Positions 1,238 to 33,126 of a stretch of 43,612 bases of DNA are shown one piece after another; positions within the stretch are counted from its first letter, which is position 1; each line of letters starts with the position of its first letter. The notes beneath the pieces were generated by a model. That model searched no databases. It worked only from the letters and a program-made list of their open reading frames with translations, and had not been told where the DNA came from. The stretch is taken from NCBI GenBank assembly GCA_015067385.1, contig SVMP01000002.1, positions 1 through 43,612 of the forward strand, in the 5' to 3' direction. The stretch comes from Oscillospiraceae bacterium. Lineage in GTDB: Bacteria; Bacillota; Clostridia; Oscillospirales; UBA644. The position numbers and the translations under genes were made by a program.

Positions 1238-2881
1238 ATGAAAAATATTGATTTTGGTCGTACAGACGGTCGCCGCGACTATATTTTCGGCGATGCAATG
1301 CTCAGACGAGAGATATGCGAAAAGCTTGTTCGTCTTTTAAGTGAATCGGGATACAAGGAAACCGTAACTCCGACAGCGGAATATTTCGATGTATTTTCCG
1401 CAGACCCCACAAGATCGATGGGAGACAATGTTTACAAATTTACCGATGAAAGAAACAGGCTCATGGCACTCCGCTGTGACTGCACTGTTCCGATAGCGAG
1501 AATTGCCGCGACAAAGCTTACGGACACGCCCCTCCCCTACAGACTTTTCTACTGTCAGAATGTTTTTTCCGCACCCAATGCTGCAAATGCGTTGACAGAA
1601 TCGACTCAATGCGGTGCCGAGCTTATCGGAACAGAGCATAAAAACATGATGGAAGCGGATATTGAGATACTTGAACTTGCGGCAAAAAGTATGCAGACTC
1701 TCTTCGGGCTTGACTTCAGAATTGAAATAGGTCACGGAAAACTGTTTACAACTCTTTCGGAGATGTATAACATCGATTCTGAAACTTCAGAAACGATACG
1801 AAAGCTCATCGAGACGAAAAACTTTGCGTCGATCGAAACGATGAAGATCCCGAAGCCGTTTAAAATGCTTCCCAAAATGTTCGGTACGGCAGACGACGTG
1901 GATCTGGCATCTTTGGACGTTTTTGCGAACGAAACGGGTTCAGATAAAATTCGTGAGATCATTGATTACATAAAAACACTCATTATCAAATTAAAAGAAA
2001 AAGGTTACGGCAAATGTCTTTCCTTTGACCTCGGTCTTGTCGGCAGACTTGACTATTACACCGGAATAATATTCGGCGGATTTGTAAGCGGTCTCGGTCA
2101 TGCCGTACTTTTGGGCGGAAGATACGACAATCTTACCGCTAACTTCGGAAGGGATCTTCCCGCAACAGGATTCGGTATAACTGTTGACGATATTTTCGAT
2201 CTTCTTAAAAACAGAAAAGAAGATGTTCAACCCGAAAAGCCGCTTCGTCCGATCAGAATAGCGCTCACAAAAGGCAGACTTGAAAAGAAGACCATTGAGC
2301 TTTTTGAAAAGAACGGTGTTGACTGTTCATCGCTCATAAACAAAGGACGCAAACTCGTTTTTCCGCTTAACAACGGTCAGTTTGAGGTCATGCTCGTTAA
2401 GAGCCGAGATGTTATAACATATGTTGAACACGGCGTATGCGATCTCGGAATAGTAGGAAGCGATACGATAACGGAATACGGCTCATCGCTTTACGAGCTT
2501 GCGGATCTCGGCTTCGGAAAATGCAGAATGGCATTGGCAGGAAATGCAAAATATAAAAACGACCCCGAAAATTTCTTCGGAGGTTATTCAAAGAAGGTTC
2601 TTGCAACTAAATTTGTAAACGCTGCAAGAAGATACGCCGCAGAGAAAAAAGTGGACGTGGAGATCGTAACTATCGAGGGATCGGTCGAGCTTGCTCCGAT
2701 ACTCGGACTTGCCGACGGTATAGTTGATATTGTTGAAACAGGTGACACTCTCCGTGAAAACGGACTTGAAATAATTGAAGATATTTTCCCTGTATCTGCA
2801 AGAATAGTTGCCAACGTAGCCGCAACGAAACTACGTAAAAAAGAAATAGATGAAATGTTATCCGGCGTATTGAAAGTATAA
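1238..2881 (+). CDS. hisZ-hisG: Fused ATP phosphoribosyltransferase regulatory subunit (HisZ, about aa 1-320) and short-form catalytic subunit (HisG, about aa 338-547)
   Basis: Single uninterrupted 547-aa ORF. The N-terminal half is HisRS-like (RLDYYTGIIF, GGRYD). The C-terminal part starts IRIALTKGRL and contains DIVETGDTLRENGL, typical of HisG. Confidence 0.85.
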   Translation: MKNIDFGRTDGRRDYIFGDAMLRREICEKLVRLLSESGYKETVTPTAEYFDVFSADPTRSMGDNVYKFTDERNRLMALRCDCTVPIARIAATKLTDTPLPYRLFYCQNVFSAPNAANALTESTQCGAELIGTEHKNMMEADIEILELAAKSMQTLFGLDFRIEIGHGKLFTTLSEMYNIDSETSETIRKLIETKNFASIETMKIPKPFKMLPKMFGTADDVDLASLDVFANETGSDKIREIIDYIKTLIIKLKEKGYGKCLSFDLGLVGRLDYYTGIIFGGFVSGLGHAVLLGGRYDNLTANFGRDLPATGFGITVDDIFDLLKNRKEDVQPEKPLRPIRIALTKGRLEKKTIELFEKNGVDCSSLINKGRKLVFPLNNGQFEVMLVKSRDVITYVEHGVCDLGIVGSDTITEYGSSLYELADLGFGKCRMALAGNAKYKNDPENFFGGYSKKVLATKFVNAARRYAAEKKVDVEIVTIEGSVELAPILGLADGIVDIVETGDTLRENGLEIIEDIFPVSARIVANVAATKLRKKEIDEMLSGVLKV

Positions 2882-2904
2882 AAAAGACAGATAGGGTTAT
2901 TAAA

Positions 2905-4182
2905 ATGCTTAAAAGATATTACGAAAACGACCTTTCCGCTTTCTTTTCTCAACTTGATGAAAAAAGAAACGTCACAGAGGCGGACGTTGCAAAAACAGTT
3001 TCCGAAATAATAAACGATGTAAAACTCGGCGGCGATGCGTCCTTAAGAAAATACACCGAGAAATTTGACGGTGTTTCACTTGAAAACTTCGAGGTTTCAA
3101 AGGAAAAGCCGATGGAAGCACTTGAAAGATCAAGAATCAGAGAGCCTCTTATCGCAGCCGCAAACAATATAAAAACATATCACGAACATCAGCTTGCGGA
3201 CGGATTTAAGATCGAATCCGAAAACGGCTGCGCTATCGGCAGAAGAGTATTACCCTTGAAAAGAGTCGGTGTTTATGTTCCCGGAGGAAAGGCGGCATAC
3301 CCGTCCTCTGTCTTAATGAATGCCATCCCCGCAAAAGTTGCAGGTGTTGAAGAAATAATAATGGTAACACCTCCCCCGAAAAATGAAGATGAAAACACGG
3401 ATATTCTTGCGGCGGCTGCTGTTGCAGGTGTTGACAGAATATTTTACTGCGGCGGCGCTCAGGCACTTGCGGCTCTTGCTTACGGTACGGAAAGCGTCCC
3501 CAAAGTAGATAAAATAGTCGGTCCCGGCAATATTTTCGTTGCAACAGCAAAGAAGCTTTTGTTTGGAACAGTTGACATCGACATGATAGCCGGCCCGTCC
3601 GAAATATGTGTTATAGCTGATGAAAACGCTCCCGACAGATTTGTTGCGGCGGACCTTCTTTCACAGGCAGAACACGATGAGCTCGCATCGTCCATTCTTG
3701 TTTGTTTCTCGGAAGAAAAGGCAAAAAGAGTTGAGGCAGAGCTTGAAAAACAGATCGCTGTCCTCCCCCGTTCAGAGATCATTCTTAAATCTCTCGCAAA
3801 CAACGGTGCCGTTCTTATCTGTAAAGATATGGACAGCGCAATTGATGCGGCTAACAAGATCGCATCCGAACATCTCGAACTTTGTGTTGAAGAACCTTTC
3901 AAATATCTCGATAAAGTAAGAAATGCAGGTTCGGTATTCCTCGGATACTTTTCTCCCGAACCTTTGGGGGACTATTATGCAGGTCCTAACCATGTTCTTC
4001 CGACATCGGGAACAGCGAGATTTTTCTCACCTCTTTCCGTTGAAAGTTTCACAAAAACAAGTTCATTTATATATTACACACAGTCTGCGCTTTCCGCGGC
4101 GGCTTCCGATATAACCGCAATCGCAAAAGCAGAAAGACTTATGGCACACGCAAACGCCATTGAAGTAAGGGAAGGTAAATAG
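2905..4182 (+). CDS. hisD: Histidinol dehydrogenase
   Basis: 425-aa ORF with HisD hallmarks (GGAQAIAALAYGT-like GGAQALAALAYGTES, SQAEHD, PNHVLPT). Confidence 0.95.
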   Translation: MLKRYYENDLSAFFSQLDEKRNVTEADVAKTVSEIINDVKLGGDASLRKYTEKFDGVSLENFEVSKEKPMEALERSRIREPLIAAANNIKTYHEHQLADGFKIESENGCAIGRRVLPLKRVGVYVPGGKAAYPSSVLMNAIPAKVAGVEEIIMVTPPPKNEDENTDILAAAAVAGVDRIFYCGGAQALAALAYGTESVPKVDKIVGPGNIFVATAKKLLFGTVDIDMIAGPSEICVIADENAPDRFVAADLLSQAEHDELASSILVCFSEEKAKRVEAELEKQIAVLPRSEIILKSLANNGAVLICKDMDSAIDAANKIASEHLELCVEEPFKYLDKVRNAGSVFLGYFSPEPLGDYYAGPNHVLPTSGTARFFSPLSVESFTKTSSFIYYTQSALSAAASDITAIAKAERLMAHANAIEVREGK

Positions 4183-4184
4183 AA

Positions 4185-5249
4185 ATGGTCTTCGGAAAAA
4201 AATTGAACGGCGCTGAAGAATATATTCCTTTTAAATATGAGCCGGGAATGATACGTCTTGACGCAAACGAAAGCTACGCCGACATGCCCGATGAAATGAA
4301 AAATAAAGTTCTTGCCGAAATAAATGCTCAAGCATTCAACAGGTATCCTGACCCTGCGGCTTCGGCGCTTTGCAAGGCTTTTGCGGATTATTACGGTATT
4401 TTTGCATCTAACGTCGTAGCGGGAAACGGAAGCGATGAACTTATTTCCATAATATTCTCTGCGCTTTTACCGAAGCATTCCAAAGTTCTGATCCTTACCC
4501 CCGATTTTTCCATGTATAAAATATATGCAAATCTCTACGAACAGAGTGTTTGCACGGTTGAAAAAGACAATGACCTTAACATAACGGCTCAGGCAGTCAT
4601 CGAGGCAGCCAAGAAATACAGCGTTGATTTTATTATTTTCTCAAATCCCTGCAATCCAACCGGACAGGGAATGAAAGCAGAAGATATCGAGACGATCGTT
4701 TCTTCCGTAAATTGCGCTGTTTGCGTTGATGAGGCATATATGGAATTTTGGGCAGAAAATGAAACCGTTATGCCGCTGATAAATAAATATGAAAACCTAT
4801 TGATTCTGAAAACATGCTCAAAAGCATTCGGAATGGCAGGTTTCAGACTCGGATTTGTTATTGCAAACGAAAATATTATATCAATGTTCCGAAAAGCGAA
4901 AAGTCCGTATAATGTTAATTCCCTTTCTCAAGCGGCAGGGCTTGCGGCGCTCAAAAACAGAGAATATCTCAAAAACATGACGGCTCAGATAATTTCAAGA
5001 AAAGAAAAGCTTTACAATGCGCTCAAAGAGCTGGAATCGCCCGTATTCCGTGTGTTTGACACAAAAACGAATTTCGTAACCGTTCAAACACCGATGGCAA
5101 AGGAGCTTTATTCGTATCTTGTTAAAAACAATATCATTGTACGTTATTCATCTCCCGATTATCTGCGTATAACAGCAGGCACGCGAGGCGAAAACGATCA
5201 GCTAATAAGTAAATTGGAGGCGGCACTCGGTGAGACAAGAGTTCATTAA
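4185..5249 (+). CDS. hisC: Histidinol-phosphate aminotransferase (class II PLP aminotransferase)
   Basis: 354-aa ORF with NPCNPTG and a CSKAFGMAGFRLG PLP-lysine region. It sits in the his operon, with RBS GGGAAGG upstream. Confidence 0.9.
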   Translation: MVFGKKLNGAEEYIPFKYEPGMIRLDANESYADMPDEMKNKVLAEINAQAFNRYPDPAASALCKAFADYYGIFASNVVAGNGSDELISIIFSALLPKHSKVLILTPDFSMYKIYANLYEQSVCTVEKDNDLNITAQAVIEAAKKYSVDFIIFSNPCNPTGQGMKAEDIETIVSSVNCAVCVDEAYMEFWAENETVMPLINKYENLLILKTCSKAFGMAGFRLGFVIANENIISMFRKAKSPYNVNSLSQAAGLAALKNREYLKNMTAQIISRKEKLYNALKELESPVFRVFDTKTNFVTVQTPMAKELYSYLVKNNIIVRYSSPDYLRITAGTRGENDQLISKLEAALGETRVH

Positions 5250-5811
5250 CAGGCAGACTGCTGAAACACGTATCTCTATCAATCTTTCGCTTGACGGAAC
5301 AGGTTCTTTCGACGGTTCTTCCGGCATCGGTTTTTTTGACCATATGCTTAATTCCTTTGCAATCCATGGCGGTTTCGACATCGTTTTAAGTGCCAAAGGC
5401 GACTTGAATGTTGACTGTCACCACACAGTTGAAGACATCGGGATCGTTCTCGGTAAAGCATTCCACGGTGCGCTCGGCGATAAATGCGGTATAACACGTT
5501 TCGGAAGTTCGGCAATACCGATGGACGAAGCGCTTGCAAGAGCAGTCGTTGATATTTCGGGAAGACCGTATCTTGTTTTCGATGCAAAATTCGAAGAAGA
5601 AAAGGTCGGGGAATTCGACACATGCATGACCGAAGAATTTTTCCGAGCATTTGCATTTAATGCGGGAATGACGCTTCATATGTCGTTACTTTACGGAAAA
5701 AATTCTCATCACTGCATTGAAGCTCTCTTCAAAGCAGCCGCACATGCCCTTAAAAATGCCGTAAAAATTGAAGGCGACACAATTCTGAGTGCGAAGGACG
5801 TTCTTGAATGA
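5230..5811 (+). CDS. hisB: Imidazoleglycerol-phosphate dehydratase (monofunctional, no phosphatase domain)
   Basis: 193-aa ORF with a GTG start after GGAGG. It has TAETRISINLSLDG and HHTVEDIGI motifs. Confidence 0.95.
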   Translation: MRQEFINRQTAETRISINLSLDGTGSFDGSSGIGFFDHMLNSFAIHGGFDIVLSAKGDLNVDCHHTVEDIGIVLGKAFHGALGDKCGITRFGSSAIPMDEALARAVVDISGRPYLVFDAKFEEEKVGEFDTCMTEEFFRAFAFNAGMTLHMSLLYGKNSHHCIEALFKAAAHALKNAVKIEGDTILSAKDVLE

Positions 5812-6443
5812 AATTAGCAATAATAGATTACGGAGCGGGTAATCTCCGTTCTGTTGTAAAGGCTTTTAACTTTATAGGCGAGGATTGCGTTGTAACATCT
5901 GACAGAGAAACGATCCATTCCTGTTCGGGAATAGTATTGCCGGGTGTCGGCGCATTCAGAGAAGCAGTAAATAAGCTTGAAGCAAAAGGTCTTTGCGACA
6001 TATTGAAAAAAGAAGCCGAAAGCGGAAAAGCACTTTTCGGCATTTGCCTCGGAATGCAGCTTCTTTTCGACGAAAGTTACGAATTCGGTCACACCGACGG
6101 ACTCGGCTTTATAAACGGTTCTGTTGAAAAGATCGATACAAACGGAGCAGATCTCAAAATTCCGCACATCGGTTGGAATACGCTGAAATTCAACGAGAAA
6201 TCGAATCTGTTCAGCGGCATAGAAGATAATTCTTACGTTTATTTCGTTCACTCTTTCGCGGCAAAAACAGACAGCAAAAACGTCACGGCTTACACAGACT
6301 ACGGTACGGCAGTTGTTGCGGCGGCAGAAAATAAAAATGTTTGCGGCACACAGTTTCATCCTGAAAAGAGCGGTGAAGTCGGTTTAAAAATATTAAAAAA
6401 TTTCTGTAATACGGTGCGTCATGATAATTTTACCTGCAATTGA
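5808..6443 (+). CDS. hisH: Imidazole glycerol phosphate synthase, glutamine amidotransferase subunit
   Basis: 211-aa ORF with GICLGMQ (catalytic Cys) and FHPEKS motifs. Its start overlaps the hisB stop. Confidence 0.95.
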   Translation: MKLAIIDYGAGNLRSVVKAFNFIGEDCVVTSDRETIHSCSGIVLPGVGAFREAVNKLEAKGLCDILKKEAESGKALFGICLGMQLLFDESYEFGHTDGLGFINGSVEKIDTNGADLKIPHIGWNTLKFNEKSNLFSGIEDNSYVYFVHSFAAKTDSKNVTAYTDYGTAVVAAAENKNVCGTQFHPEKSGEVGLKILKNFCNTVRHDNFTCN

Positions 6444-7137
6444 TGTAAAAGACGGTCAGTGCGTCCGTCTGCTTCGCGGTGAATTCGGAACGGTACACAA
6501 GGTTGCCGAAAGTCCGAAGAAATCCGCAGAAAATTTCATATCCGCAAATGCGGAATTTCTGCATGTTGTTGACCTTGACGGTGCGCTTGAAAAAAAGCCC
6601 GTCAACTTTGAAACAGTAAAGCAGATCATATCTCTCGGCACCCCGATCGAGATCGGCGGCGGAATTCGTTCGGAAAAAGATTTTGAAATGTATGCCGAAT
6701 TAGGTGCCAAGAGAATAATCCTCGGCTCCGTTGCATTAACAAACAAGGCTCTCGTTAAACGCTGTGCAGAAAAATATCCTGAGCTTACGGCTGTCGGAAT
6801 CGATGCAAAGGACGGATTTGTTTCAACAGAGGGTTGGCTCGAAAACGGAACCGTCAGATTTACGGACCTTGCAAAAGAGATGGAATCTATCGGTGTTAAA
6901 TACGTTATTTTTACGGATATTTCACGAGACGGAACGCTCGGCGGACCGAATCTCGATCAACTTTCAGAGCTTAAAAATGCCGTAAAAATGAATATTATTG
7001 CATCGGGCGGTATGAGGGATATAGGAGACGTTAAGGCATGTAAAGAATTGGGCCTTTACGGTGCTATCTGCGGAAAATCACTTTACGCAGGAACTCTTGA
7101 TCTCAGGGAGGCGATAGAATGCTCGCAAAAAGAATAA
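6421..7137 (+). CDS. hisA: ProFAR isomerase
   Basis: 238-aa ORF with [17 protein letters not shown] and GGGIRS motifs. Confidence 0.95.
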
Positions 7138-7922
7138 TTCCGTGCCTCGATATAAAAGACGGCAAGGTCGTTAAAGGAACAAACTTTGTCGGGCTTCGAG
7201 ATGTCGGTGACCCGGTAGAGATAGCAAGAAGATATAACGAACAGGGTGCTGACGAGATCGTTTTTCTCGATATTACGGCTTCACATGAAAACCGCGGAAC
7301 ACTCCTTGACGTTATAGAAAGAACTGCGAGCGAGGTATTTTTACCCGTTACCGTAGGCGGCGGAATCAGAACAACTGACGACATCAGGGAAATACTCCGT
7401 GTCGGCGCAGATAAGATATCGATAAACTCAGCGGCAGTAAAAGATAAAACTTTGATCTCAAAAGCGGCAGACATGTTCGGATCTCAGTGCGTTGTTGTTG
7501 CGATAGACGTTAAACGAATCCCATCAAAAGAAAACTATAACGGAGTTTTTCCAACCGATTTCGGAACATCTCCCGAAGATTTTCATGTCGTTATCCACGG
7601 TGGACGCACAGACACGGGAATTAACGCAATAGAATGGGCAAAAGAAGTGGAAAAGCTCGGTGCAGGCGAAATTCTGCTGACATCGATGGATACAGACGGC
7701 GTAAAAAAAGGATTTGACCTTGAAATAACAAAAATAATTTCAGATGCGGTTTCCATTCCGGTCATAGCGTCGGGCGGATGCGGCTCACTCGAAGATTTTT
7801 ACGATGTTTTTGCTCAAACAGATGCATCGGCAGCGCTTGCGGCTTCTCTGTTCCATTTCGGAGAGCTTTCCGTGCCGCAGGTTAAAAACTATCTAAAAGA
7901 AAAGGGAATACCGGCAAGATGA
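7119..7922 (+). CDS. hisF: Imidazole glycerol phosphate synthase, cyclase subunit
   Basis: 267-aa ORF with [23 protein letters not shown] and ASGG motifs. Confidence 0.95.
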
Positions 7923-8245
7923 ATTGGGAAGATAAAATTTTTGACGGCAGAGATCTTGTTCCCGCAATAATAACGGATTGCGAAAACGGCGAGGTTCTCA
8001 TGCTTGCATATATGAACAGAGAATCTTTTCTCAAAACGCTTGAAACAGGGAAAACATGGTTCTTTTCCCGTTCCAGACAGTCTCTTTGGAACAAAGGAGA
8101 AACAAGCGGTCATTTTCAGTTTGTAAAATCGATCAAATGCGATTGCGATAACGATACAATTCTTATTTCCGTTGAACAAATAGGACCTGCATGCCACACC
8201 GGCTCACGCAGTTGCTTTTTCAACACGATTCTGGAGGAAAAATGA
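7919..8245 (+). CDS. hisI: Phosphoribosyl-AMP cyclohydrolase (separate from hisE)
   Basis: 108-aa ORF with the [17 protein letters not shown] and [10 protein letters not shown]...GPACHTG motif set. Confidence 0.9.
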
Positions 8246-8592
8246 AAGATACATTCAGCGAACTTTACGAAGTTGTAATGTCAAGAAAAGAAGAAAAGCA
8301 GGAAGGTTCTTATACCTGTTATCTTTTTGAAAAAGGACTTGACAAAATATTAAAAAAGGTCGGAGAAGAATGCTCCGAAACAATTATTGCAGCAAAAAAT
8401 GCGGATATGTTCAAAGACGATGCTGATAAAAAAAGCGATCTCATCGGAGAGATCAGCGATCTTTACTATCACATAGCCGTAATGATGGCTCAAGTCGGTA
8501 TCACACCTGAGGATGTTAATGCGGAGCTTGAAAAGAGATCACTCAAAACAGGCAATCTCAAAAAGTTCCATACAACAGACAAGAATACCTGA
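8242..8592 (+). CDS. hisE: Phosphoribosyl-ATP pyrophosphohydrolase
   Basis: The track ORF is 8191-8592. The likely start is ATG 8242 (ATGA overlap with the hisI stop, GGAGGA at 8233-8238). It is MazG-like ([10 protein letters not shown]...EISDLYYH). Confidence 0.85.
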
Positions 8593-8626
8593 TTGTGTCA
8601 AAATTGTAAAATCGGATTTTTAGGTA

Positions 8627-8655
8627 TTGACAACACGATTTTTTTGTGCTATATT
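8627..8655 (+). promoter_or_regulatory. sigma-A type promoter of the aro leader/operon
   Basis: TTGACA at 8627-8632, 17-bp spacer, TGcTATATT at 8647-8655. Confidence 0.6.
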
Positions 8656-8686
8656 AAACGCATAATTATTCATAAGGAGAAACGTA

Positions 8687-8797
8687 ATGAACAGAGCACT
8701 CAGAGCAGCTGAATATTTTTACTATGGTTTTGCATTTTACTTTAGCAAAGCTTTTTTGTGTTTGGCTGAAAAAGGTGTTACGGGTTCTGAGCGTTAA
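8687..8797 (+). CDS. Candidate 36-aa Phe/Tyr-rich leader peptide (MNRALRAAEYFYYGFAFYFSKAFLCLAEKGVTGSER)
   Basis: AAGGAGA at 8674-8680 lies 6 nt before ATG 8687. Codons 10-23 hold 4 Tyr and 5 Phe. TAA is at 8795-8797. It sits between a promoter and a terminator upstream of DAHP synthase. It is too short for the 60-aa ORF track. Confidence 0.6.
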   Translation: MNRALRAAEYFYYGFAFYFSKAFLCLAEKGVTGSER

Positions 8798-8824
8798 GCT
8801 CCAAACTTATTCGTATATTATTTA

Positions 8825-8860
8825 CCTCACAGCTGAACACGCTGTGAGGTTTTCGTATTT
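8825..8860 (+). terminator. Intrinsic terminator (attenuator) in the aro leader
   Basis: CCTCACAGC (8825-8833) pairs with GCTGTGAGG (8841-8849) around a 7-nt loop. TTTTCGTATTT follows, immediately before the aroF RBS AGGAGG at 8861-8866. Confidence 0.7.
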
Positions 8861-8874
8861 AGGAGGAAAAAACA

Positions 8875-9879
8875 ATGATTGTACTTCTCAAACAAAATCC
8901 CGATAAGGCGCAACTTGACAGCCTTATTTCCTGGCTCGAATCCAAAGGCGTAGAGATACATCCCACCGTAGGTGCAACACAAACAATCCTCGGTCTTGTA
9001 GGAGACACATCTCATCTTGATATAGATCTCATTTCCGCTCTGGACATAGTTGAAGCCGTTCGCAGAGTTCAAGAACCGTATAAAAATGCAAACAGAAAGT
9101 TCCATCCGCAAGATACAGTGATCAAGGTCGGCAATACTCAGATAGGCGGCGGCAACCTCACACTTATAGCAGGTCCGTGTTCTGTTGAATCGGAAGAACA
9201 GATATGTGAGATAGCAATGAAGGTTAAGGAAAGCGGGGCCACGATGCTTCGAGGCGGCGCATTCAAGCCCAGAACATCCCCCTACTCTTTCCAGGGCCTC
9301 AGAAATGAAGGTCTTCGTCTTCTTTCGATTGCAAAGAAGCTCACAGGTCTTCCCATTGTAACCGAAATAATGGATATATCTCAGCTTCCTAACTTTGACG
9401 ATGTTGACGTAATTCAGGTTGGTGCGAGAAACATGCAGAATTTCGAGCTTTTAAAAGCCCTCGGAACTGTCAGAAAACCCATTCTTTTAAAGAGAGGTCT
9501 TTCCTCAACATACGAAGAACTTCTCATGAGTGCAGAATACATCATGGCAGGCGGAAACAATGAAGTTATCCTTTGCGAACGAGGAATAAGAACATTTGAA
9601 ACATATACCCGTAACACTCTCGACGTTGCAGCTATTCCCGTTTTAAAACAGCTTTCACATCTCCCCATAATTATCGACCCCAGCCACTCAGCCGGAAAAT
9701 CAGCTCTTGTATCTCCCCTCTCATGCGCAGCTGTTGCGGCAGGAGCAGACGGTCTTATAATTGAAGTCCACAACGACCCCGCACACGCGCTTTGCGACGG
9801 TCCTCAATCGATCCGCCCTGAAGCATTCGATTCTCTTGTAAAAAAACTCAATGTTATATCAGACACTATAAAAGAATAA
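8875..9879 (+). CDS. aroF: 3-deoxy-7-phosphoheptulonate (DAHP) synthase, type I-beta with an N-terminal ferredoxin/ACT-like regulatory domain
   Basis: 334-aa ORF. About 70 N-terminal residues (MIVLLKQNPDKAQLDSLISWLESKG...) precede a KDO8PS-like core (GPCSVES, LRGGAFKPRTSPYSFQG, DPSH). Confidence 0.9.
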   Translation: MIVLLKQNPDKAQLDSLISWLESKGVEIHPTVGATQTILGLVGDTSHLDIDLISALDIVEAVRRVQEPYKNANRKFHPQDTVIKVGNTQIGGGNLTLIAGPCSVESEEQICEIAMKVKESGATMLRGGAFKPRTSPYSFQGLRNEGLRLLSIAKKLTGLPIVTEIMDISQLPNFDDVDVIQVGARNMQNFELLKALGTVRKPILLKRGLSSTYEELLMSAEYIMAGGNNEVILCERGIRTFETYTRNTLDVAAIPVLKQLSHLPIIIDPSHSAGKSALVSPLSCAAVAAGADGLIIEVHNDPAHALCDGPQSIRPEAFDSLVKKLNVISDTIKE

Positions 9880-9903
9880 AAACAGAAAGTCAGGATAATT
9901 AAG

Positions 9904-10737
9904 ATGATTATCGGCATCGTAGGTCTCGGACTTATAGGCGGTTCGATGGCTAAAAGCATAAAAGCGAGAACAGACGATATGGTTCTTGGTATAGACCTTA
10001 ACGAAGAAACAATGAGCCTTGCAAAAATGTCCGGCTCTATAGACGGTGTTTTAACCGATGACAAACTCTCGTCTTGCGATATAATAATGATAGCCGTTGC
10101 CCCCGTTGCACTTATAAAATGGGTCGAAGAAAAGGCGAAGCTTCTTAAAGGAACACTTCTTATCGATCTTTGCGGTGTAAAAAGACATCTCGGAAACAAA
10201 ATATCGGAAAAAGCTGCTGAAAACGGTTTTTCGTATATAGGCGGACATCCGATGGCAGGTAAAGAAGTCAGCGGCTTTAAAAATTCAAATGCGACTTTAT
10301 TCAACGGAGCTTCAATGATAATTATTACGGATGAACATTCCAATATAATAACTCTTGATATGCTCAAAACATATTTTCTCAAGATCGGATTTGAAAAGAT
10401 CACTTTCTCTACTCCGGAAGAGCATGATATGATAATTGCGTACACATCACAGCTTGCGCATATAACATCAAGCGCATATATAAAATCTCCGACAGCTCAA
10501 AAGCATATGGGCTTTTCGGCAGGAAGCTACAAAGATATGACACGTGTTGCAAAGCTTGATGAAAATCTTTGGACAGAGCTTTTGTTGGACAACTCGGATT
10601 ATCTTATTGACGAGTTAAAAACTCTCATTGGAAATCTTTCCGATTATCTTAACGCACTTGAGACAAACGATGCCGAAACCCTCAAAGAGCTTTTGAAGAA
10701 AGGCCGCGAGCTCAAGCTTACCGCCGGAGGCGAATAA
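9904..10737 (+). CDS. tyrA: Prephenate dehydrogenase
   Basis: 277-aa ORF with an IVGLGLIGGS Rossmann motif and GGHPMAG. Confidence 0.9.
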   Translation: MIIGIVGLGLIGGSMAKSIKARTDDMVLGIDLNEETMSLAKMSGSIDGVLTDDKLSSCDIIMIAVAPVALIKWVEEKAKLLKGTLLIDLCGVKRHLGNKISEKAAENGFSYIGGHPMAGKEVSGFKNSNATLFNGASMIIITDEHSNIITLDMLKTYFLKIGFEKITFSTPEEHDMIIAYTSQLAHITSSAYIKSPTAQKHMGFSAGSYKDMTRVAKLDENLWTELLLDNSDYLIDELKTLIGNLSDYLNALETNDAETLKELLKKGRELKLTAGGE

Positions 10738-11801
10738 TGGCAATGCAGACGGTAAAAGTCAATGTCGGAAAAGGTTATGATGTTATAATCGAAAACGGCA
10801 TCCTCTCCGATTGCGGAAAGATAGTTAAAAAGGTTACGGGAAAGGGACGAGCTGCGATAATTACCGACTCAAATGTTTCCCGATTATATCTGCAAACTGT
10901 TTTAACATCTCTCAAAAAGGAGAATATAGAGAGCGAGAGCTTTGTTTTCGATGCAGGTGAGCAGTCAAAAAACATTTCCACATTATCCGATATCCTCGAA
11001 TTTCTTGCAGAAAAACAGTTTGTACGTTCTGATACGGTAATAGCGCTCGGCGGCGGTGTAACGGGAGATATGGCAGGCTTTGCGGCGGCTATATATCTCC
11101 GCGGAATTAAATTCATTCAGATACCGACAACGCTCCTTGCTGCAGTTGATTCTTCCGTAGGCGGAAAGACAGCGATCGACCTTAGTGCAGGAAAAAACCT
11201 TGCGGGAGCGTTTAAACAGCCTGAAGCAGTAATTTGCGACCCCGAAGTTTTCTCAACACTTCCCGAAAAGGAATTCGCAAACGGAATGGCGGAAACGATA
11301 AAGTACGGCGTTCTTTTCAGCGACGAGCTGTTTTACTCATTCAACGACAAAACAACGCCGAGCAGTCTCTGCGAGATGATAAAAAAATGTGTTTCTTTCA
11401 AAGCGAGAACCGTTGAAAATGATGAATTCGACAACGGCGAAAGAAAGCTTTTAAATCTCGGACACACGATCGGTCATGCGATAGAAAAATGCAGTAATTT
11501 TACCGTAAGTCACGGTTATGCCGTAGCGGCAGGAATGGCTATGATAGCAAGAGCAAGCGAAAGCCTGGGAACCGCTGAAAAAGGAACAGCTGAAAATATT
11601 GAAAAGATGTTAATAAAACATTCTCTTCCAACAGATTTCGACTACACGGCAGAAGAGCTTACAAATGCGGCGCTTTCGGACAAAAAACGCAGCGGAGATA
11701 AAATAACGCTTGTTTTACCGACCAATATAGGCAAATGTATACTCAAAGACGAGCCGATACAAATGCTTGGAAAATATATAGAACTCGGCAAGGGAAAATA
11801 A
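10737..11801 (+). CDS. aroB: 3-dehydroquinate synthase
   Basis: 354-aa ORF with GGGVTGDMAGFAAA, DSSVGGKT and LNLGHTIGHA motifs. Confidence 0.95.
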   Translation: MAMQTVKVNVGKGYDVIIENGILSDCGKIVKKVTGKGRAAIITDSNVSRLYLQTVLTSLKKENIESESFVFDAGEQSKNISTLSDILEFLAEKQFVRSDTVIALGGGVTGDMAGFAAAIYLRGIKFIQIPTTLLAAVDSSVGGKTAIDLSAGKNLAGAFKQPEAVICDPEVFSTLPEKEFANGMAETIKYGVLFSDELFYSFNDKTTPSSLCEMIKKCVSFKARTVENDEFDNGERKLLNLGHTIGHAIEKCSNFTVSHGYAVAAGMAMIARASESLGTAEKGTAENIEKMLIKHSLPTDFDYTAEELTNAALSDKKRSGDKITLVLPTNIGKCILKDEPIQMLGKYIELGKGK

Positions 11802-13061
11802 ATGGATATTATAATTAAACCGTCCTCACTCAGCGGCAAAACAGAAGCCATAGGCTCAAAGTCAGACATACACAGACTGCTGATCTGCGCGGCAGTTGCA
11901 AACGAAAAGACAGAAATAGACGGCATCTTTTTTTCCAATGATGTTTTTGCAACATTATCATGCATCAACGCACTCGGAGCAAAAACCGTAATCAATCAAA
12001 ACAGCTGCACTGTTTATCCGATAGAAAAAAGTACCGAGTGTCCGATAATTGATTGCGGAGAAAGCGGTTCAACATTGAGATTTCTTTTGCCGGTCGCATG
12101 TGCGGTAACAGAAAAAGCTGAGTTTGTCGGGAAAGGACGTCTTCCGGAAAGACCGATCGGCGAGCTTATAACGGCGATGTGTTCGGGCGGCGTTAAATTC
12201 AGCGAAGAAAAGCTTCCGTTAAAAACCGAAGGGAAACTTCGTGCAGGGAAATATTATATACCCGGCAATATCAGTTCTCAATATATATCGGGGCTTCTGA
12301 TGGCATTAAGCACGGTTGAAGGCGAAAGCGAGATCATTTTAACATCAAAAACAGAGTCTGTCGGATACATTAACATGACACTGTCTACCCTTTCGATTTT
12401 CGGAGCAGACATAAAGGAAGAAGAAGGACGTTATATTGTAAAAGGAAAAAAAAGACTTATTTCACCGAAGAAAATACGTGTTGACGGAGACTGGTCAAAT
12501 GCAGCTTTCTTTTTAGCCGCAGGTGCCATAGGCGATAAAATAGAAATAGACGGATTAAATATAAACAGCCTTCAGGGTGACAAAGAAATAATCGAGATAC
12601 TTCAACGCTTCGGAGCAGACATTAAAGAAGAAAACGGAACAATAACTGTATCTAAAGGGAAGCTTTGCGGATGCAGGATAGATCTTTCAGACATTCCCGA
12701 CATGCTTCCTGCGCTTGCAGTTGTAGCAGCTTTTGCGGAAGGCGATACGGTATTTACTGGAGCTGCAAGATTACGTTTAAAAGAAAGCGACCGACTTGCA
12801 ACCGTACATAAAATGATAACCGACCTTGGAGGAAAGGCAACAGAATTCGAGGACGGATTGACCGTTCACGGAACAAACAGAGGTCTTACAGGCGGCAAGA
12901 CAGACGGTGCAAACGACCACAGAATAGTTATGGCTGCGGCTATAGCAGCGGCTTTCTGCAAAGAAGAAACGGTTATTACAGGTTGTCAGGCAGTTAACAA
13001 ATCGTACCCGACATTTTTTGATGATATGAAAAAACTCGGAGGGAAAGCAGATGTCATCTAA
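11802..13061 (+). CDS. aroA: 3-phosphoshikimate 1-carboxyvinyltransferase (EPSP synthase)
   Basis: 419-aa ORF with GSKSDIHR, GESGSTLRFL, LRLKESDR and NDHRIVMA motifs. Confidence 0.95.
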   Translation: MDIIIKPSSLSGKTEAIGSKSDIHRLLICAAVANEKTEIDGIFFSNDVFATLSCINALGAKTVINQNSCTVYPIEKSTECPIIDCGESGSTLRFLLPVACAVTEKAEFVGKGRLPERPIGELITAMCSGGVKFSEEKLPLKTEGKLRAGKYYIPGNISSQYISGLLMALSTVEGESEIILTSKTESVGYINMTLSTLSIFGADIKEEEGRYIVKGKKRLISPKKIRVDGDWSNAAFFLAAGAIGDKIEIDGLNINSLQGDKEIIEILQRFGADIKEENGTITVSKGKLCGCRIDLSDIPDMLPALAVVAAFAEGDTVFTGAARLRLKESDRLATVHKMITDLGGKATEFEDGLTVHGTNRGLTGGKTDGANDHRIVMAAAIAAAFCKEETVITGCQAVNKSYPTFFDDMKKLGGKADVI

Positions 13062-14139
13062 ATACGGAAAAACACTGGAAATATCGGTTTTCGGGCAGTC
13101 TCACGGAAAGGCTATCGGTGTTAACATAGACGGACTTCCATCGGGCGAAGAGATCGATATTGAAAAACTTTATGAATTTATGGGCAGGAGAGCTCCCGGA
13201 AAAAGTGACTTTGCGACAAAACGCTCCGAGGCTGATCTCCCTGTTTTCCTATCGGGGATAGAAAACGGTAAAACCTGCGGCTTTCCGATATGTGCGATAA
13301 TTGAAAATAAAGATACACGTTCAACAGACTACGCAGGACTTTCAAAAACGCCTCGTCCGTCTCACGCCGATTACACTGCATTGTTAAGATACGGAGAAAG
13401 CGTTGACCTCAGAGGCGGAGGTCATTTTTCTGGAAGATTGACAGCCCCCCTCTGCATAGCAGGCGGTATCGCAAAGCAGATCCTTGAAAGACGAGGCATA
13501 TATATCGGTGCACAGATATTATCCGTCGGAAAAGAAAATGGCGAAAAATTTCCGTTATACCCTTCAAAAGAACTATTTGACGAGACAGCAAAAAAAGAAT
13601 TGCCGACCGTAAACGATGAATGCGGTAAAAAAATGGCTGAAGTTATACGTCTTGCAGCAAAGGACGCTGATTCCGTGGGCGCAAAAATTGAATGTGCAAT
13701 AATCGGATTGCCTGCAGGAATAGGCTCCCCGATGTTTGACGGTATAGAAAACCGCATCGCTCAGGCAATTTTCGGTATTCCGGCAGTGAAAGGAATAGAA
13801 TTCGGTGCGGGATTCGAATCCGCAGAAATGTTGGGTTCCGAAAACAACGATCCGTTCACCGTAAAAGATGGCGTTATCGTTACGGAAACAAACAATTGCG
13901 GAGGCATTCTCGGCGGTATTTCAAACGGAATGCCGATAGTATTTACAACTGCATTTAAACCCACGCCGTCAATAGGAAAAGAACAGCGTACCGTTGATGT
14001 TAAAACAATGGAAAACACAACTGTTACCGTAAAAGGCAGACACGACCCCTGCATTGCAGTAAGAGCCGTACCTGTTGTTGAAGCGGTTGCGGCAACAGCG
14101 ATTCTCGATATGCTTTTGGAAGAGAGCGAGGTAATATAA
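13051..14139 (+). CDS. aroC: Chorismate synthase
   Basis: 362-aa ORF with FGQSHG, RPSHADY, GGGHFSGR and GRHDPC motifs. Confidence 0.95.
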   Translation: MSSKYGKTLEISVFGQSHGKAIGVNIDGLPSGEEIDIEKLYEFMGRRAPGKSDFATKRSEADLPVFLSGIENGKTCGFPICAIIENKDTRSTDYAGLSKTPRPSHADYTALLRYGESVDLRGGGHFSGRLTAPLCIAGGIAKQILERRGIYIGAQILSVGKENGEKFPLYPSKELFDETAKKELPTVNDECGKKMAEVIRLAAKDADSVGAKIECAIIGLPAGIGSPMFDGIENRIAQAIFGIPAVKGIEFGAGFESAEMLGSENNDPFTVKDGVIVTETNNCGGILGGISNGMPIVFTTAFKPTPSIGKEQRTVDVKTMENTTVTVKGRHDPCIAVRAVPVVEAVAATAILDMLLEESEVI

Positions 14140-15279
14140 ATGGATCTTTCCGAGATCAGAAAAAGAATAGATGAAATAGACGGTAAGCTCCTGCCCCTTT
14201 TTCTTGAAAGAATGAATCTTTCCGCAGAAGTTGCGGCATATAAAAAAGCTCACAATCTGCCTGTTTTAAACAAGGGCAGAGAACGTGAGATTCTGGATCG
14301 TGTGATGAAAGAAAGCGGCGATATGGAGCAGTTTTCGCATCGCCTTTATACGACCATTTTTGAACTCAGCAGGGCATATCAGGAAACATTGAACACAGAA
14401 AGCTCCGAATTGAGTAAAAATATCGAAGAAGCATTAAAAAACAGCCCCGATATGTTCCCCCAAAGTGCAACGGTCGCTTGTCAAGGCGTTGAAGGCGCAT
14501 ATTCACAGATGGCGGCGGACAAGATCTTTCCTCGCGGAAATCTGATGTTTTTCAAGACTTTTGAGGCGGTTTTCGATGCTGTCGAAAGCGGGCTTTGCCG
14601 TTTCGGTGTCGTTCCGATAGAAAACAGTTCAAACGGTTCCGTGAGAGCAACGTACGATCTGTTAAGAACAAAAAATGTAAAGATCGTTAAAAGCGAACGT
14701 CTATGCATTCGCCACGAACTTTTAGCAAAGCCAGGAACAAAACTTGAAGACATAAAAGAGATCAGGTCTCACGAACAGGCGCTCGGTCAATGCAGTGAAT
14801 TTTTAAAGACATTGGGGGCCGATGTTAAAATAACGGCTGTCGCAAACACAGCGATGGCGGCGCAATCCGTTGCAAATAACGATGACAACACGGTTGCGGC
14901 GATCGCATCGCATTCGGGTTGCGAGATCTACGGACTTGTACCTATAAAACAAAACATTCAGAACAGCGACAATAATTACACCAGATTTATCTGCATTTCA
15001 AAGAATACCGAAATTTATCCCGGAGCTAATCGCATAAGTCTTGTTTTAGAATGTGAACATCGCCCGGGAACGCTTTATCAGATACTCGCAAAGCTTGCAG
15101 CGCTTGAGATCGATATACTGAAGCTCGAAAGTTGTCCGATAGTCGGTCACGATTTTGAGTTTATGTTCTTTTTTGAAATCTCGGCAAACGTAAAAGATCC
15201 GAAAACGATCTCAATGCTGGAAAGCCTTAAACGAGACTGCAGAAAACTTATTTTCCTCGGAAACTATTCGGAGAATTAA
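14140..15279 (+). CDS. pheA: Bifunctional chorismate mutase / prephenate dehydratase with a C-terminal ACT domain
   Basis: 379-aa ORF. It has an N-terminal AroQ-type CM helix (IRKRIDEIDGKLLPLFLERM), a PDT core (ACQGVEGAYS...PIENSSNGSV) and an ACT region (ISLVLECEHRPGTLY). Confidence 0.9.
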   Translation: MDLSEIRKRIDEIDGKLLPLFLERMNLSAEVAAYKKAHNLPVLNKGREREILDRVMKESGDMEQFSHRLYTTIFELSRAYQETLNTESSELSKNIEEALKNSPDMFPQSATVACQGVEGAYSQMAADKIFPRGNLMFFKTFEAVFDAVESGLCRFGVVPIENSSNGSVRATYDLLRTKNVKIVKSERLCIRHELLAKPGTKLEDIKEIRSHEQALGQCSEFLKTLGADVKITAVANTAMAAQSVANNDDNTVAAIASHSGCEIYGLVPIKQNIQNSDNNYTRFICISKNTEIYPGANRISLVLECEHRPGTLYQILAKLAALEIDILKLESCPIVGHDFEFMFFFEISANVKDPKTISMLESLKRDCRKLIFLGNYSEN

Positions 15280-16521
15280 ATGGAACAGAAAATATTTGGT
15301 CTTTTAGGACGAAAACTCGGTCATAGTTATTCCGTCCCTATTCACAAGAAGCTCGGAAACGATAAATACAAGCTTTACGAGCTTGAACCCGAACAGCTCG
15401 GCGAATTTATCCGCAGAGAAGATATTGGCGGTTTAAACGTAACGATACCGTATAAAGTTGACGCAATGAAATTCTGCGATGAGATCTCCCCCGAAGCGAT
15501 GGCGATAGGCTCTGTAAACACGATAGTTAACCGCAACGGTAAAGTTTACGGTTATAACACCGATAAATTCGGTTTTTGCCATATGTTAAAACAGGGCGGT
15601 ATCGATGTAAAAGACAAAAAAGTTCTCGTTCTGGGAAGCGGCGGTGCGAGCAAGACAGCGTGCTTCTGCGTAAAAGAACTGGGAGCGAAGAGCCTTTTTG
15701 TTATATCGAGAAGCGGTGAGGACAATTACAACAACCTCGAAAAGCATTACGATGCGGAGATCATAATCAACACGACTCCCGTCGGAATGTATCCTAACAA
15801 CGGTGAGGCGGCTATAGATCTTCGTAATTTCAAAAAGTGTGTCGGCGTTGCGGATATGATATACAATCCTCTGCGTACAAAATTTTTAATGGATGCACAG
15901 GATCTTGGTATTGCGAACATAGGCGGTCTTTCGATGCTCGTGGCTCAGGCAAAAATGGCTGACGAATATTTCTTTGACAGAAAGACTGACGATTCGATAA
16001 TCGGTAAAATAACAGACGAGCTTGCAAAAGACAGCGAAAATATCGTCCTTATCGGAATGCCGGGAAGCGGTAAAACGACTGTCGGCAAAGAGCTTGCGAA
16101 ATTAACGGGAAGAGAGATACTTGAAGCCGACGAAATGATCGTCAAAGCGGCAGGAAGATCCATACCCGAAATATTTGCGGACGGCGGCGAACCTGCGTTC
16201 AGAAAGATCGAAAGCGAGATACTCGAACAGTGCGGCAAGCAGGCAGGTAAAATTATCGTTACGGGCGGCGGTGCTGTTACTGTTGAGAAAAATTACGCTT
16301 ATTTAAAGCAAAACGGCAGGATCTATGAAATAATGAGAGATATCTCTCTTCTTGAAACGGACGGCAGACCGTTATCTAAAGGCAAGGATCTTTCGGAAAT
16401 GTACAAAAAAAGACGTCCAATGTACGATGCATTCAGAGATACTTTCGTTGAAAACAGCACGACCGCAGCAGAAACAGCGGAAAATATTCGGAGGGATTTT
16501 TATGAAAATTCTCGTGATTAA
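15280..16521 (+). CDS. aroE-aroK: Fused shikimate dehydrogenase (aa 1-~245) and shikimate kinase (aa ~253-413)
   Basis: Single 413-aa ORF. The AroE part has LNVTIPYK, NTD and GSGGASK. The kinase part has Walker A GMPGSGKTTVGK and GGGAV. Confidence 0.85.
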   Translation: MEQKIFGLLGRKLGHSYSVPIHKKLGNDKYKLYELEPEQLGEFIRREDIGGLNVTIPYKVDAMKFCDEISPEAMAIGSVNTIVNRNGKVYGYNTDKFGFCHMLKQGGIDVKDKKVLVLGSGGASKTACFCVKELGAKSLFVISRSGEDNYNNLEKHYDAEIIINTTPVGMYPNNGEAAIDLRNFKKCVGVADMIYNPLRTKFLMDAQDLGIANIGGLSMLVAQAKMADEYFFDRKTDDSIIGKITDELAKDSENIVLIGMPGSGKTTVGKELAKLTGREILEADEMIVKAAGRSIPEIFADGGEPAFRKIESEILEQCGKQAGKIIVTGGGAVTVEKNYAYLKQNGRIYEIMRDISLLETDGRPLSKGKDLSEMYKKRRPMYDAFRDTFVENSTTAAETAENIRRDFYENSRD

Positions 16522-16927
16522 CGGCCCGAACATCAATATGCTCGGGATACGCGAACCCGAAATTTACGGTTCAAAGACGTATTCAGACCTCGTTGAACTT
16601 ATAAAAAAAGAAGCCGACAGTCTCGGTGTTGAAGTTAAATTTTTTCAGTCGAACCATGAGGGTGCGATAGTTGACGAGATCCAGCAGGCATACGGCAAAT
16701 TTGACGGCATCGTTATCAATCCTGCTGCGTACACACACACGAGCGTTGCACTTTTGGACGCAGTAAAAGCGGTCGGAATACCGACGGTCGAAGTTCATAT
16801 CTCCGATCCCGACACACGCGATGAATTCAGAAAGATATCGTATATCAGACAGGCGTGCGTGGCGACCGTCAAAGGAAAAGGCTTTGACGGGTATATTGAG
16901 GCGATGAAAATATTGGTAAACAAATAA
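16502..16927 (+). CDS. aroQ: Type II 3-dehydroquinate dehydratase
   Basis: The track ORF is 16352-16927. The likely start is ATG 16502 (MKILVINGPNINMLGIREPEIYG) after GGAGGG. It contains the HISD motif. Confidence 0.9.
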   Translation: MKILVINGPNINMLGIREPEIYGSKTYSDLVELIKKEADSLGVEVKFFQSNHEGAIVDEIQQAYGKFDGIVINPAAYTHTSVALLDAVKAVGIPTVEVHISDPDTRDEFRKISYIRQACVATVKGKGFDGYIEAMKILVNK

Positions 16928-16937
16928 TAACAGAAAT

Positions 16938-16970
16938 GGACCGTAAGAACTACGGTTCATTTTGTTATTT
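16938..16970 (+). terminator. Intrinsic terminator of the aro operon
   Basis: GGACCGTA (16938-16945) pairs with TACGGTTC (16951-16958). ATTTTGTTATTT follows. Confidence 0.7.
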
Positions 16971-22183: not shown

Positions 22184-23107
22184 TTGAATCGAAAGCGATG
22201 GAATATTATGGAAAATCTCATAAAAAAATTAAAAGAAGAGAAAAATGCCGTTATCCTCGCACATTACTATGCACCTGACGAAGTTCAGAAGATAGCGGAC
22301 TATATAGGAGACTCTTTCTATCTTGCTAAGATAGCAAAAAACAGTAATGCAGATATTATACTTTTCTGCGGCGTTTCGTTTATGGGAGAGAGTGCAAAGA
22401 TATTAAACCCCGATAAAAAAGTACTCATGCCCGATCCATCGGCAGACTGTGCGATGGCGCACATGGTACGAGACGGAATAATAGAAGAAATGAGAGAGAA
22501 ATACGACGATCTTGCCGTTGTTTGTTACATCAACTCAACTGCCGAACTCAAAAGCAAAAGCGATGTATGCGTAACATCGTCAAATGCAGTAAAGATTGTA
22601 AAAAATTTACCGAATAAAAATATTTTCTTTATTCCCGACAAAAATCTCGGCAGTTTTGTTGCACAACAAGTCCCCGAAAAAAATATCATAATAAACGACG
22701 GCTGCTGTCCGATCCATGCAAAGATCGAAAAAAAGCATATTGAAGCTGAAAAGGAAAAGCATCCGAATGCAAAGGTTCTCTCTCATCCCGAATGCGAAAA
22801 AGAGATCCTTGATATCTCGGATTATATCGGAAGCACCGCAGATATTATCGATCACGCTAAAAAAAGCGACTGTGATGAATTTATCATTTGTACGGAGGAC
22901 GGCGTAAATTACAAGCTTACGTCCGATAATCCGAACAAACGGTTCTATTTCCCGAACCCACGTCCCTGTTGTAAGGATATGAAACTTAACACTTTGGAAG
23001 AGATCGCGTCTGTTCTCGAAAAAGAAGATAAAATTATTGAAATAAATGAGGATCTGCGTATAAAAGCGCTCATTCCGTTAGAAAAAATGTTGGAGCTTGC
23101 AAAATAA
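22184..23107 (+). CDS. nadA: Quinolinate synthase
   Basis: The ORF starts at TTG 22184 (GGAAGG 5 nt upstream). An alternative in-frame ATG at 22208 gives MENLIKKLKEEKNAVILAHYY, the usual NadA N-terminus. Confidence 0.9.
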   Translation: MNRKRWNIMENLIKKLKEEKNAVILAHYYAPDEVQKIADYIGDSFYLAKIAKNSNADIILFCGVSFMGESAKILNPDKKVLMPDPSADCAMAHMVRDGIIEEMREKYDDLAVVCYINSTAELKSKSDVCVTSSNAVKIVKNLPNKNIFFIPDKNLGSFVAQQVPEKNIIINDGCCPIHAKIEKKHIEAEKEKHPNAKVLSHPECEKEILDISDYIGSTADIIDHAKKSDCDEFIICTEDGVNYKLTSDNPNKRFYFPNPRPCCKDMKLNTLEEIASVLEKEDKIIEINEDLRIKALIPLEKMLELAK

Positions 23108-25227: not shown

Positions 25228-25239
25228 AGGAGTTAAGAT

Positions 25240-33093: not shown

Positions 33094-33126
33094 ATACTAT
33101 TTAGTTGTTTCAGCCGTTAAGACTGG

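Follow-up and report, generated by a model that had tools for sequence, protein, structure and literature searches.

The classical leader-peptide attenuators of Proteobacteria, of the Escherichia coli pheL-pheA, trpL and hisL types, combine a leader open reading frame (ORF) rich in codons for the cognate amino acid with mutually exclusive RNA helices (1:2, 2:3 and 3:4) and an intrinsic terminator. Here we describe a leader with the same logic in 43,612 nucleotides of an Oscillospiraceae genome (GenBank assembly GCA_015067385.1, contig SVMP01000002.1, positions 1 to 43,612, hereafter the window), where it lies directly upstream of aroF, the DAHP synthase gene, and the operon that aroF heads. 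We consider it very probable that this element is a ribosome-mediated transcription attenuator which links expression of the shikimate/Phe/Tyr operon to how fully tRNA-Phe and tRNA-Tyr are charged. E. coli pheL (Rfam family Phe_leader) showed no sequence or structure match to the window leader, even at E ≤ 10. Furthermore, pheL responds to Phe alone and has pheA as its only target, whereas here mixed Phe and Tyr codons precede the common pathway and both of its branches.

A leader peptide upstream of aroF is known from Corynebacterium glutamicum, where aroR (Phe-Tyr-Phe) controls the aroF operon by attenuation (Neshat et al. 2014, as summarised in PMC11802643). As in the window, Phe and Tyr codons are placed directly upstream of the DAHP synthase gene, and according to the same summary relief of attenuation by ribosome stalling is experimentally supported there (PMC11802643). 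The two differ in lineage (aroR belongs to the Actinobacteria), in the short Phe-Tyr-Phe sequence of aroR compared with nine Phe/Tyr codons in 14 here, and in that aroR responds to Phe, not Tyr, as reported (PMC11802643). The operons also differ, the one in the window comprising the full shikimate pathway with both tyrA and pheA; the likeness to aroR is functional and drawn from its description (PMC11802643).

A second comparable element is uORFC-13-1, a predicted upstream ORF (uORF) found before aroF in Acholeplasma and unassigned environmental DNA (Brewer et al. 2021, PMC8632094). It shares with the window leader a promoter, a ribosome-binding site, a Phe-coding U-run, an additional base-paired element, an adjacent terminator and an exclusive position upstream of aroF (PMC8632094). 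It differs in having 24 representatives only and “at least one” Phe codon and in being a prediction, all compared here by description only (PMC8632094). Unlike the element so described, the Oscillospiraceae leader has a long mixed Phe/Tyr run and a resolved 1:2/2:3/3:4 switch. uORFC-13-1 is absent from Rfam 15.

Amino-acid operons of low-GC Gram-positive bacteria are usually regulated by T-boxes. A preliminary description of the window locus, made from its sequence alone, regarded leader-peptide logic as atypical of Firmicutes, and such leaders are indeed rare there, but not unknown. Alongside the predicted Acholeplasma uORF, His leaders occur in the Bacillus cereus group, Peptostreptococcaceae and Erysipelotrichales (PMC9413887, PMC2965389), a Leu-rich ilv-leu attenuator peptide is found in Staphylococcus aureus (PMC5794164), and ribosome-mediated attenuation of resistance genes functions in Bacillus subtilis (PMC4191407). 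The His and Leu leaders likewise represent classical attenuation of amino-acid operons in low-GC Gram-positives, but they concern other amino acids, operons and lineages, none being aromatic or from Oscillospiraceae. A search of full-text literature, with subscription papers outside its scope, turned up no aromatic leader peptide from Clostridia or Oscillospiraceae, which does not prove absence. The mechanism itself is classical, but it appears not to have been reported from this group of bacteria.

A Phe/Tyr-rich leader ORF and a terminator precede aroF

All features of the leader and operon lie on the forward strand. A sigma-70-type promoter at 8627–8655 consists of TTGACA (8627–8632), a 17-nt spacer, TG (8647–8648) and TATATT (8650–8655), giving an extended −10 element (TGcTATATT). 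With 11 of 12 positions matching in addition to the extended −10, it was the top match on this strand in a 15-kb scan for promoters and terminators, and would place the transcription start near 8661–8663. Promoters of the form TTGACA..TGnTAnAAT occupy the same relative position at four related loci (L001, L056, L026 and L025), and in strain variants the −35 and −10 elements are unchanged while the spacer between them varies.

A Shine-Dalgarno (SD) sequence, AAGGAG at 8674–8679, stands 7 nt 5′ of the ATG (8687) of a leader ORF of 36 codons plus stop (8687–8797, stop codon at 8795), encoding MNRALRAAEYFYYGFAFYFSKAFLCLAEKGVTGSER. Codons 10–23 (8714–8755) read Y F Y Y G F A F Y F S K A F, thus 4 Tyr, 5 Phe and no Trp, and form the proposed ribosome stalling zone. 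No other short ORF on either strand of the window has as high a density of Phe and Tyr. Downstream is an intrinsic terminator (8824–8860), the putative attenuator, with a 10-bp stem (8824–8833/8841–8850), a 7-nt loop (8834–8840) and a tail at 8851–8860 (DNA TTTCGTATTT, RNA UUUCGUAUUU). It ranked first among the terminator-like sites of the 15-kb scan and has a helix energy of −17.3 kcal/mol.

The tail is followed immediately by the aroF SD (AGGAGG, 8861–8866) and by aroF itself (8875–9879, ATG at 8875). The regulated operon (8861–16963) has the order aroF-tyrA-aroB-aroA-aroC-pheA-aroEK-aroQ, with aroQ ending at 16927 and an operon terminator at 16933–16963. Its products are DAHP synthase, prephenate dehydrogenase, the aroB, aroA and aroC proteins, chorismate mutase-prephenate dehydratase, aroE-aroK and aroQ, which yield exactly chorismate, Phe and Tyr. 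Genes for trp were found neither in the aro operon nor among the other 20 window proteins scanned. Translational attenuation by sequestration of the SD was also considered and rejected; the aroF SD lies outside every helix described below, hence control of aroF translation is unlikely.

This arrangement agrees closely with the preliminary description, whose features are all present, displaced by at most 1–2 nt. The consensus promoter, the well-placed SD, the 36-codon ORF and its aromatic codons, the hairpin directly before the DAHP synthase ribosome-binding site and an operon with tyrA and pheA but without trp genes were all confirmed. The hairpin and T-tract are likewise real, but the stem had been given as 9 bp rather than 10 and its distance from the leader stop as 28 nt, where the first stem base in fact lies 26 nt past the stop.

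Predicted mutually exclusive helices in the leader RNA

The leader RNA can be divided into four regions and an inner hairpin. Region 1 (8706–8716, CAGCUGAAUAU, codons A-A-E-Y) is the 5′ strand of a predicted anti-antiterminator. The inner hairpin P1 (8726–8752), in which GGUUUUGC (8726–8733) pairs with GCAAAGCU (8745–8752), is located within the Phe/Tyr run. Region 2 (8758–8777) comprises GUGUUUGGCUG (8758–8768) and AGGUG (8773–8777) and can partner either region 1 or region 3. Region 3 (8823–8840), made up of UACCU (8823–8827) and CAGCUGAACAC (8830–8840), can partner region 2 or region 4, the segment 8830–8840 being the final four nucleotides of the terminator 5′ arm together with the entire loop. 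Region 4 (8841–8850, GCUGUGAGGU) is the terminator 3′ arm.

Region 1 is nearly a copy of region 3, and each pairs with region 2 over 11 bp. In the antiterminator 2:3, 8758–8768 pairs with 8830–8840 (11 bp) and 8773–8777 with 8823–8827 (5 bp), 16 bp in all, the 5-bp extension sequestering the remainder of the terminator 5′ arm. As both require region 3, the antiterminator 2:3 and the terminator 3:4 are mutually exclusive. Unlike in the pheL, trpL and hisL types, the loop and inner hairpin that separate region 1 from region 2 contain the regulatory codons here, and the ORF continues well beyond region 2 before its stop codon.

This architecture could be resolved because the leaders of relatives were read. 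The preliminary description had offered two candidates for competing structures. A weak 4+4 bp pairing of GCTG..AGGT (8765–8776) with ACCT..CAGC (8824–8833) does exist, but as a fragment of the 16-bp antiterminator. A local hairpin of GTTTGG (8760–8765) with CCAAAC (8801–8806) is also present in the sequence, but it appears in no minimum free energy (MFE) or antiterminated fold, and was rejected as a switch component since it lies outside every predicted state. No CCAAAC-like partner was seen by eye in relatives; in the diverged strain L082 this strand reads CCGAGT, with which wobble pairs could still form, and the hairpin may exist as a local feature.

The unconstrained fold of the leader gave a long hairpin across the ORF, followed by the terminator, with an energy well below that of shuffled sequences (z = −3.7). 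Here region 1 pairs with 8758–8768 and so encloses the Phe/Tyr run and P1. In the same fold, GGAG of the leader SD (8676–8679) and the bases after it (8676–8685) pair with sequence flanking the stop codon (8790–8802, including CUCC at 8799–8802 and GCGUU), which may limit re-initiation on terminated transcripts. Helix energies were −12.2 kcal/mol for the 2:3 core and −18.6 kcal/mol for 1:2 plus P1.

The effect of a ribosome was modelled by folding only the RNA 3′ of it. An initial treatment, in which the ribosome footprint was masked as unpaired, produced helices closed around the ribosome, which is physically meaningless, and was replaced. For a ribosome A site at 8714–8744 and RNA made only as far as 8840, the MFE structure was the 11+5 bp antiterminator. 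Over the full leader, the antiterminated and terminated states differ little in energy (−27.6 and −28.4 kcal/mol, respectively), in line with a kinetic switch, hence the order of synthesis would decide the outcome.

Conservation and covariation of the leader in related genomes

We compared the window with 80 fetched loci (L001–L080) whose DAHP synthases are 63–86% identical to its own, mostly from Oscillospiraceae/Oscillibacter together with other Clostridia and including the complete genome of Oscillibacter valericigenes Sjm18-20 (AP012044), whose leader ORF occupies approximately 3,570,149–3,570,247 (L004 3813–3911). An ATG-initiated uORF with a Phe/Tyr run, then a strong terminator, then aroF was found at 58 of the 80. 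The preliminary description had looked to exactly such conservation in related Clostridia, and the pheL/trpL-type attenuation it suggested is supported by those sequence-level features that can be assessed in silico. ORFs with at least seven Phe/Tyr in 14 residues, counted from ATG, were detected in 48 of 75 windows of 300 nt upstream of aroF, compared with seven of 3696 background windows from the same loci. Across the 58 leaders and the window’s own (n = 59), Phe makes up 17.7% and Tyr 12.6% of residues (30% combined) and Trp 0.4%.

The leader peptides are variable in length (14–47 aa) and sequence, for example MKRNLFAAEYFYFNFAYFFGKAFSRLADNRF, MSTFTFAAEYRYFSFTYYFGKAYFGLAENECV and MTKNVFTAAYFYFYFIK, and close variants of the window peptide show Tyr-Phe exchanges. 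Gene finders predict the leader ORF in many assemblies, on at least 23 contigs, and the aromatic, hydrophobic peptide resembles some small membrane proteins, which would be compatible with a functional small hydrophobic protein for which the hairpin is simply a terminator or insulator. We regard this as highly improbable, as the C-terminal part of the peptide is not conserved and only the Phe/Tyr enrichment and RNA-pairing segments are kept, no Pfam or NCBIfam model matches the peptide, and the ORF is always positioned between promoter and terminator directly before aroF. A constitutive terminator at this position would, moreover, silence an essential operon lacking its own later promoter.

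Helices were assessed in an unsupervised MAFFT alignment (A1) of 26 long-type leaders, with slid pairings as controls. The terminator 3:4 was paired in 95.8% of alignment cells, compared with 37–47% when slid, with 49 double-change cells in the 26 relatives. For the antiterminator 2:3 the figures were 82.4% and 21–51%, with 28 double-change cells against 4–9 in the controls. P1 was paired in 88.9% of cells and showed compensatory changes at four of its eight pairs, the slid controls for P1 and 1:2 combined giving 31–48%. P1 and the terminator were also predicted independently by RNAalifold. Compensating swaps between regions 2 and 3 include GUG/CAC (window), GAG/CUC (L012), CGG/CCG (L004), GGCC/GGCC (L006) and UUUCACCG/CGGUGAAA (L018). 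These patterns of covariation support the terminator, the antiterminator and P1 as predicted structures.

The picture was the same when 47 distinct region 2/terminator combinations, metagenome copies included, were tested without recourse to an alignment, cognate duplexes averaging −16.1 kcal/mol and non-cognate ones −13.3 kcal/mol, and none of 5000 permutations reached the observed value. The 1:2, P1, 2:3 and 3:4 layout is found likewise in short-type leaders, where the stop codon directly follows the Phe/Tyr run. In strain L082 (positions 1411–1696, corresponding to 8597–8880 of the window), the uORF carries only synonymous changes (Y12 TAC>TAT and A16 GCA>GCG) and the single change noted in region 3, C8840>T (C8840U), retains a G-U pair with G8758. 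Many substitutions were present in the promoter spacer, the 5′ untranslated region, the stop-to-terminator spacer and the post-terminator region of this strain.

The strength of nucleotide conservation raises the question of whether the leader is rather a structured RNA, riboswitch-like or bound by a protein in the manner of TRAP or PyrR, that senses Phe/Tyr or a regulator, its ORF a by-product of conserved U/A-rich sequence. Conservation in and around P1 (UACUUUAGCUUUACC...GGUAAGGCUU) exceeds what codon degeneracy would need, and the fold of the entire leader, well below shuffles, fits this explanation too. So does codon usage, as 79% of Phe codons in the 59 leaders are UUU (239 UUU, 62 UUC), compared with 41% in the adjacent aroF genes (217 UUU, 308 UUC), a bias that could reflect an RNA-pairing constraint or else selection for slower decoding. 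Yet the conserved nucleotides are accounted for by the 1:2, P1 and 2:3 pairings, and 55 of the 59 leaders have an SD-like motif before an ATG in the same frame, which is always Phe/Tyr-rich. Phe/Tyr richness also persists in short-type leaders that cannot be aligned, such as MTKNVFTAAYFYFYFIK, and the Tyr/Phe exchanges in close variants likewise speak for a translated sequence. By eye there is no repeated motif like the (G/U)AG repeats of TRAP, with no repeat search run.

Rfam gave no family to which such an RNA might belong. At the gathering threshold, the window contained no leader, T-box or riboswitch family in this region, and among matches up to E = 10 in 8550–8950 there was no leader family, Phe_leader included, and no T-box (RF00230). 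The T-box search was sensitive, because the model finds one in a relative (L063). That locus has no leader before aroF; its T-box (6259–6503) is situated ~1.3 kb downstream of aroF and thus presumably controls a different gene. In an Rfam scan of 16 loci without a leader, no T-box stood immediately before aroF. A structured RNA with an incidental ORF is therefore considered unlikely, and ribosome-mediated attenuation is the interpretation that we develop below.

Association of the leader with aroF

The leader is linked to aroF rather than to what lies upstream of it. The upstream neighbours of aroF fall into 47 clusters among 54, and because these neighbours differ between genomes the leader element appears to travel with aroF. 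A metagenome scan with the P1 hairpin as the sole pattern returned 120 places, 10 of which were evident chance matches and six truncated. Where there was enough downstream DNA, 103 of 114 matches were followed by aroF, at a median distance of 134 nt. The matches encode 49 distinct leader peptides and many come from human-gut assemblies.

In the window, the aro promoter is preceded by a complete his operon (hisZG, D, C, B, H, A, F, I, E; 1238–8592), with hisE ending at 8592. No terminator-like site was found on the forward strand from the hisE stop to 8824 in the 15-kb scan, so his read-through would first encounter a terminator at the aro attenuator. The hairpin could on these grounds be mainly the terminator of the his operon, with the Phe/Tyr ORF coincidental. 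This we judge very unlikely; a strong promoter separates hisE from the leader, and covariation of an antiterminator would be pointless in a plain terminator. In addition, a tblastn search with a positive control identified no his genes, hisE and hisF included, upstream of aroF at any of the 80 related loci, of which 58 nevertheless have the uORF and terminator. The his-aro adjacency was seen only in same-species contigs (L081–L085).

A Phe/Tyr leader ORF and terminator were also present at two loci assigned to Victivallaceae/Victivallales (Lentisphaerota) metagenome-assembled genomes (MAGs; L024 210–368 and L037 3759–3948), which carry a Clostridia-like aroF (~70% identity). Loci labelled Treponema, Spirochaetales, Bacteroidaceae or Alloprevotella have a similar aroF without the leader. 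The occurrence of Clostridia-like aroF in MAGs with non-Clostridia labels suggests horizontal transfer or mis-binning.

Proposed mechanism of attenuation

The sequences themselves show the parts of the switch and how these are conserved, the covariation in 2:3, 3:4 and P1, and the association with aroF. From these alone we infer ribosome stalling, kinetic competition between helices, polymerase pausing and a response to Phe and Tyr, which would combine as follows.

Transcription would begin at ~8662, and the leader ORF would be translated behind the advancing RNA polymerase. With Phe and Tyr in good supply, the ribosome would pass codons 10–23 and region 2 and reach the stop codon (8795), where it would sit in the 61-nt loop that the 2:3 helix must close. 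Region 2 would then be recaptured by region 1 (1:2 plus P1, at the energy given above) or kept from region 3, leaving region 3 to pair with region 4, and the 10-bp terminator with its U-tract would stop transcription near 8855–8860, before aroF. Under a shortage of charged tRNA-Phe or tRNA-Tyr, the ribosome would stall in 8714–8745, covering region 1 and/or melting P1; from the geometry, a ribosome stalled at the regulatory codons would disrupt the 1:2 helix. Stalled between regions 1 and 2, it would leave region 2 (8758–8768 and 8773–8777) free to pair with region 3 on its exit from the polymerase, with region 4 still unmade. Formation of 2:3 would block the terminator, and polymerase would continue into aroF-tyrA-aroB-aroA-aroC-pheA-aroEK-aroQ. 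A ribosome halted at 8753, the last Phe codon, would mask region 2 and promote termination.

The nearly invariant P1 within the regulatory codons could provide an extra layer of control, e.g. programmed pausing of the ribosome or polymerase.

Several observations weigh against this mechanism. The stop codon is 27 nt beyond region 2, and a terminating ribosome would not mask region 2, unlike in E. coli trpL; with ample Phe and Tyr, termination must hence depend on 1:2 forming again or on regions 2 and 3 being held apart sterically. The outer 1:2 helix has moderate support in the alignment, with 64.5% of cells paired and few compensatory changes, and the 5-bp extension of the antiterminator (8773–8777/8823–8827) is predicted from the window sequence. 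In a shuffle test across the 58 loci, sequestration of the terminator 5′ arm was only modestly enriched (76% versus 57%, mean z −1.9). The U-tract of the terminator is broken up (UUUUCGUAUUU), and approximately a quarter of related loci have no recognisable leader, some being truncated or having aroF inside an operon. Finally, transcription outruns translation in B. subtilis, which would weaken control of this kind if true of Clostridia.

Other features of the window

The his operon is headed by a single 547-aa ORF (1238–2881) that is HisRS-like (HisZ-type, PF13393) and contains HisG (PF01634), apparently a HisZ-HisG fusion. A good promoter (TTGACA..TATAAT) is located at ~1152–1180, and 1100–1237 yielded no leader ORF among those listed (20 aa or longer) and neither a T-box nor another Rfam match; the his operon may be regulated by a HisR-type repressor. 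Elsewhere in the window, a nadA-nadB-nadC cluster is followed by a gene for an HTH_11 and 3H-domain protein, a NiaR-like regulator (22184–25752), and two adjacent tRNA genes (33012–33201, reverse strand) are the sole Rfam matches.

A probable aromatic leader family in gut Clostridia

On the evidence of the sequences compared here, the leader appears to belong to an unannotated family that is widespread in gut Clostridia and works like pheL and aroR. The proposed range takes in Oscillibacter and further Oscillospiraceae, the Acutalibacteraceae and some loci with Lachnospiraceae or Christensenellaceae labels, and copies in metagenomes number in the hundreds. Whether this is a previously undescribed RNA/peptide family, widespread in gut Clostridia and independent of proteobacterial pheL, which senses Phe and Tyr jointly and controls the whole shikimate/Phe/Tyr pathway, we put at an even chance. 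Leader ORFs are labelled only “hypothetical protein” in public databases, and hundreds of such micro-ORFs could be re-annotated as aro leader peptides. The aligned leaders could serve as a clean seed for a new RNA family.

Specialists will find the mechanism familiar, and the points of interest are the lineage, the breadth of occurrence, the dual input of Phe and Tyr and what the element implies for coupling. A mixed Phe/Tyr run ahead of a common-pathway operon would make a natural two-input sensor, useful to set beside the single-input pheL and beside aroR. Few classical amino-acid leader peptides are on record for Firmicutes; the aromatic case adds to them and bears on coupling in Clostridia. 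If functional, it would imply tight transcription-translation coupling in these Firmicutes, as opposed to the uncoupled “runaway” transcription reported for Bacillus subtilis. For the Oscillospiraceae, abundant and poorly studied gut anaerobes with no annotated aro regulator, the leader offers a concrete regulatory mechanism for aromatic biosynthesis.

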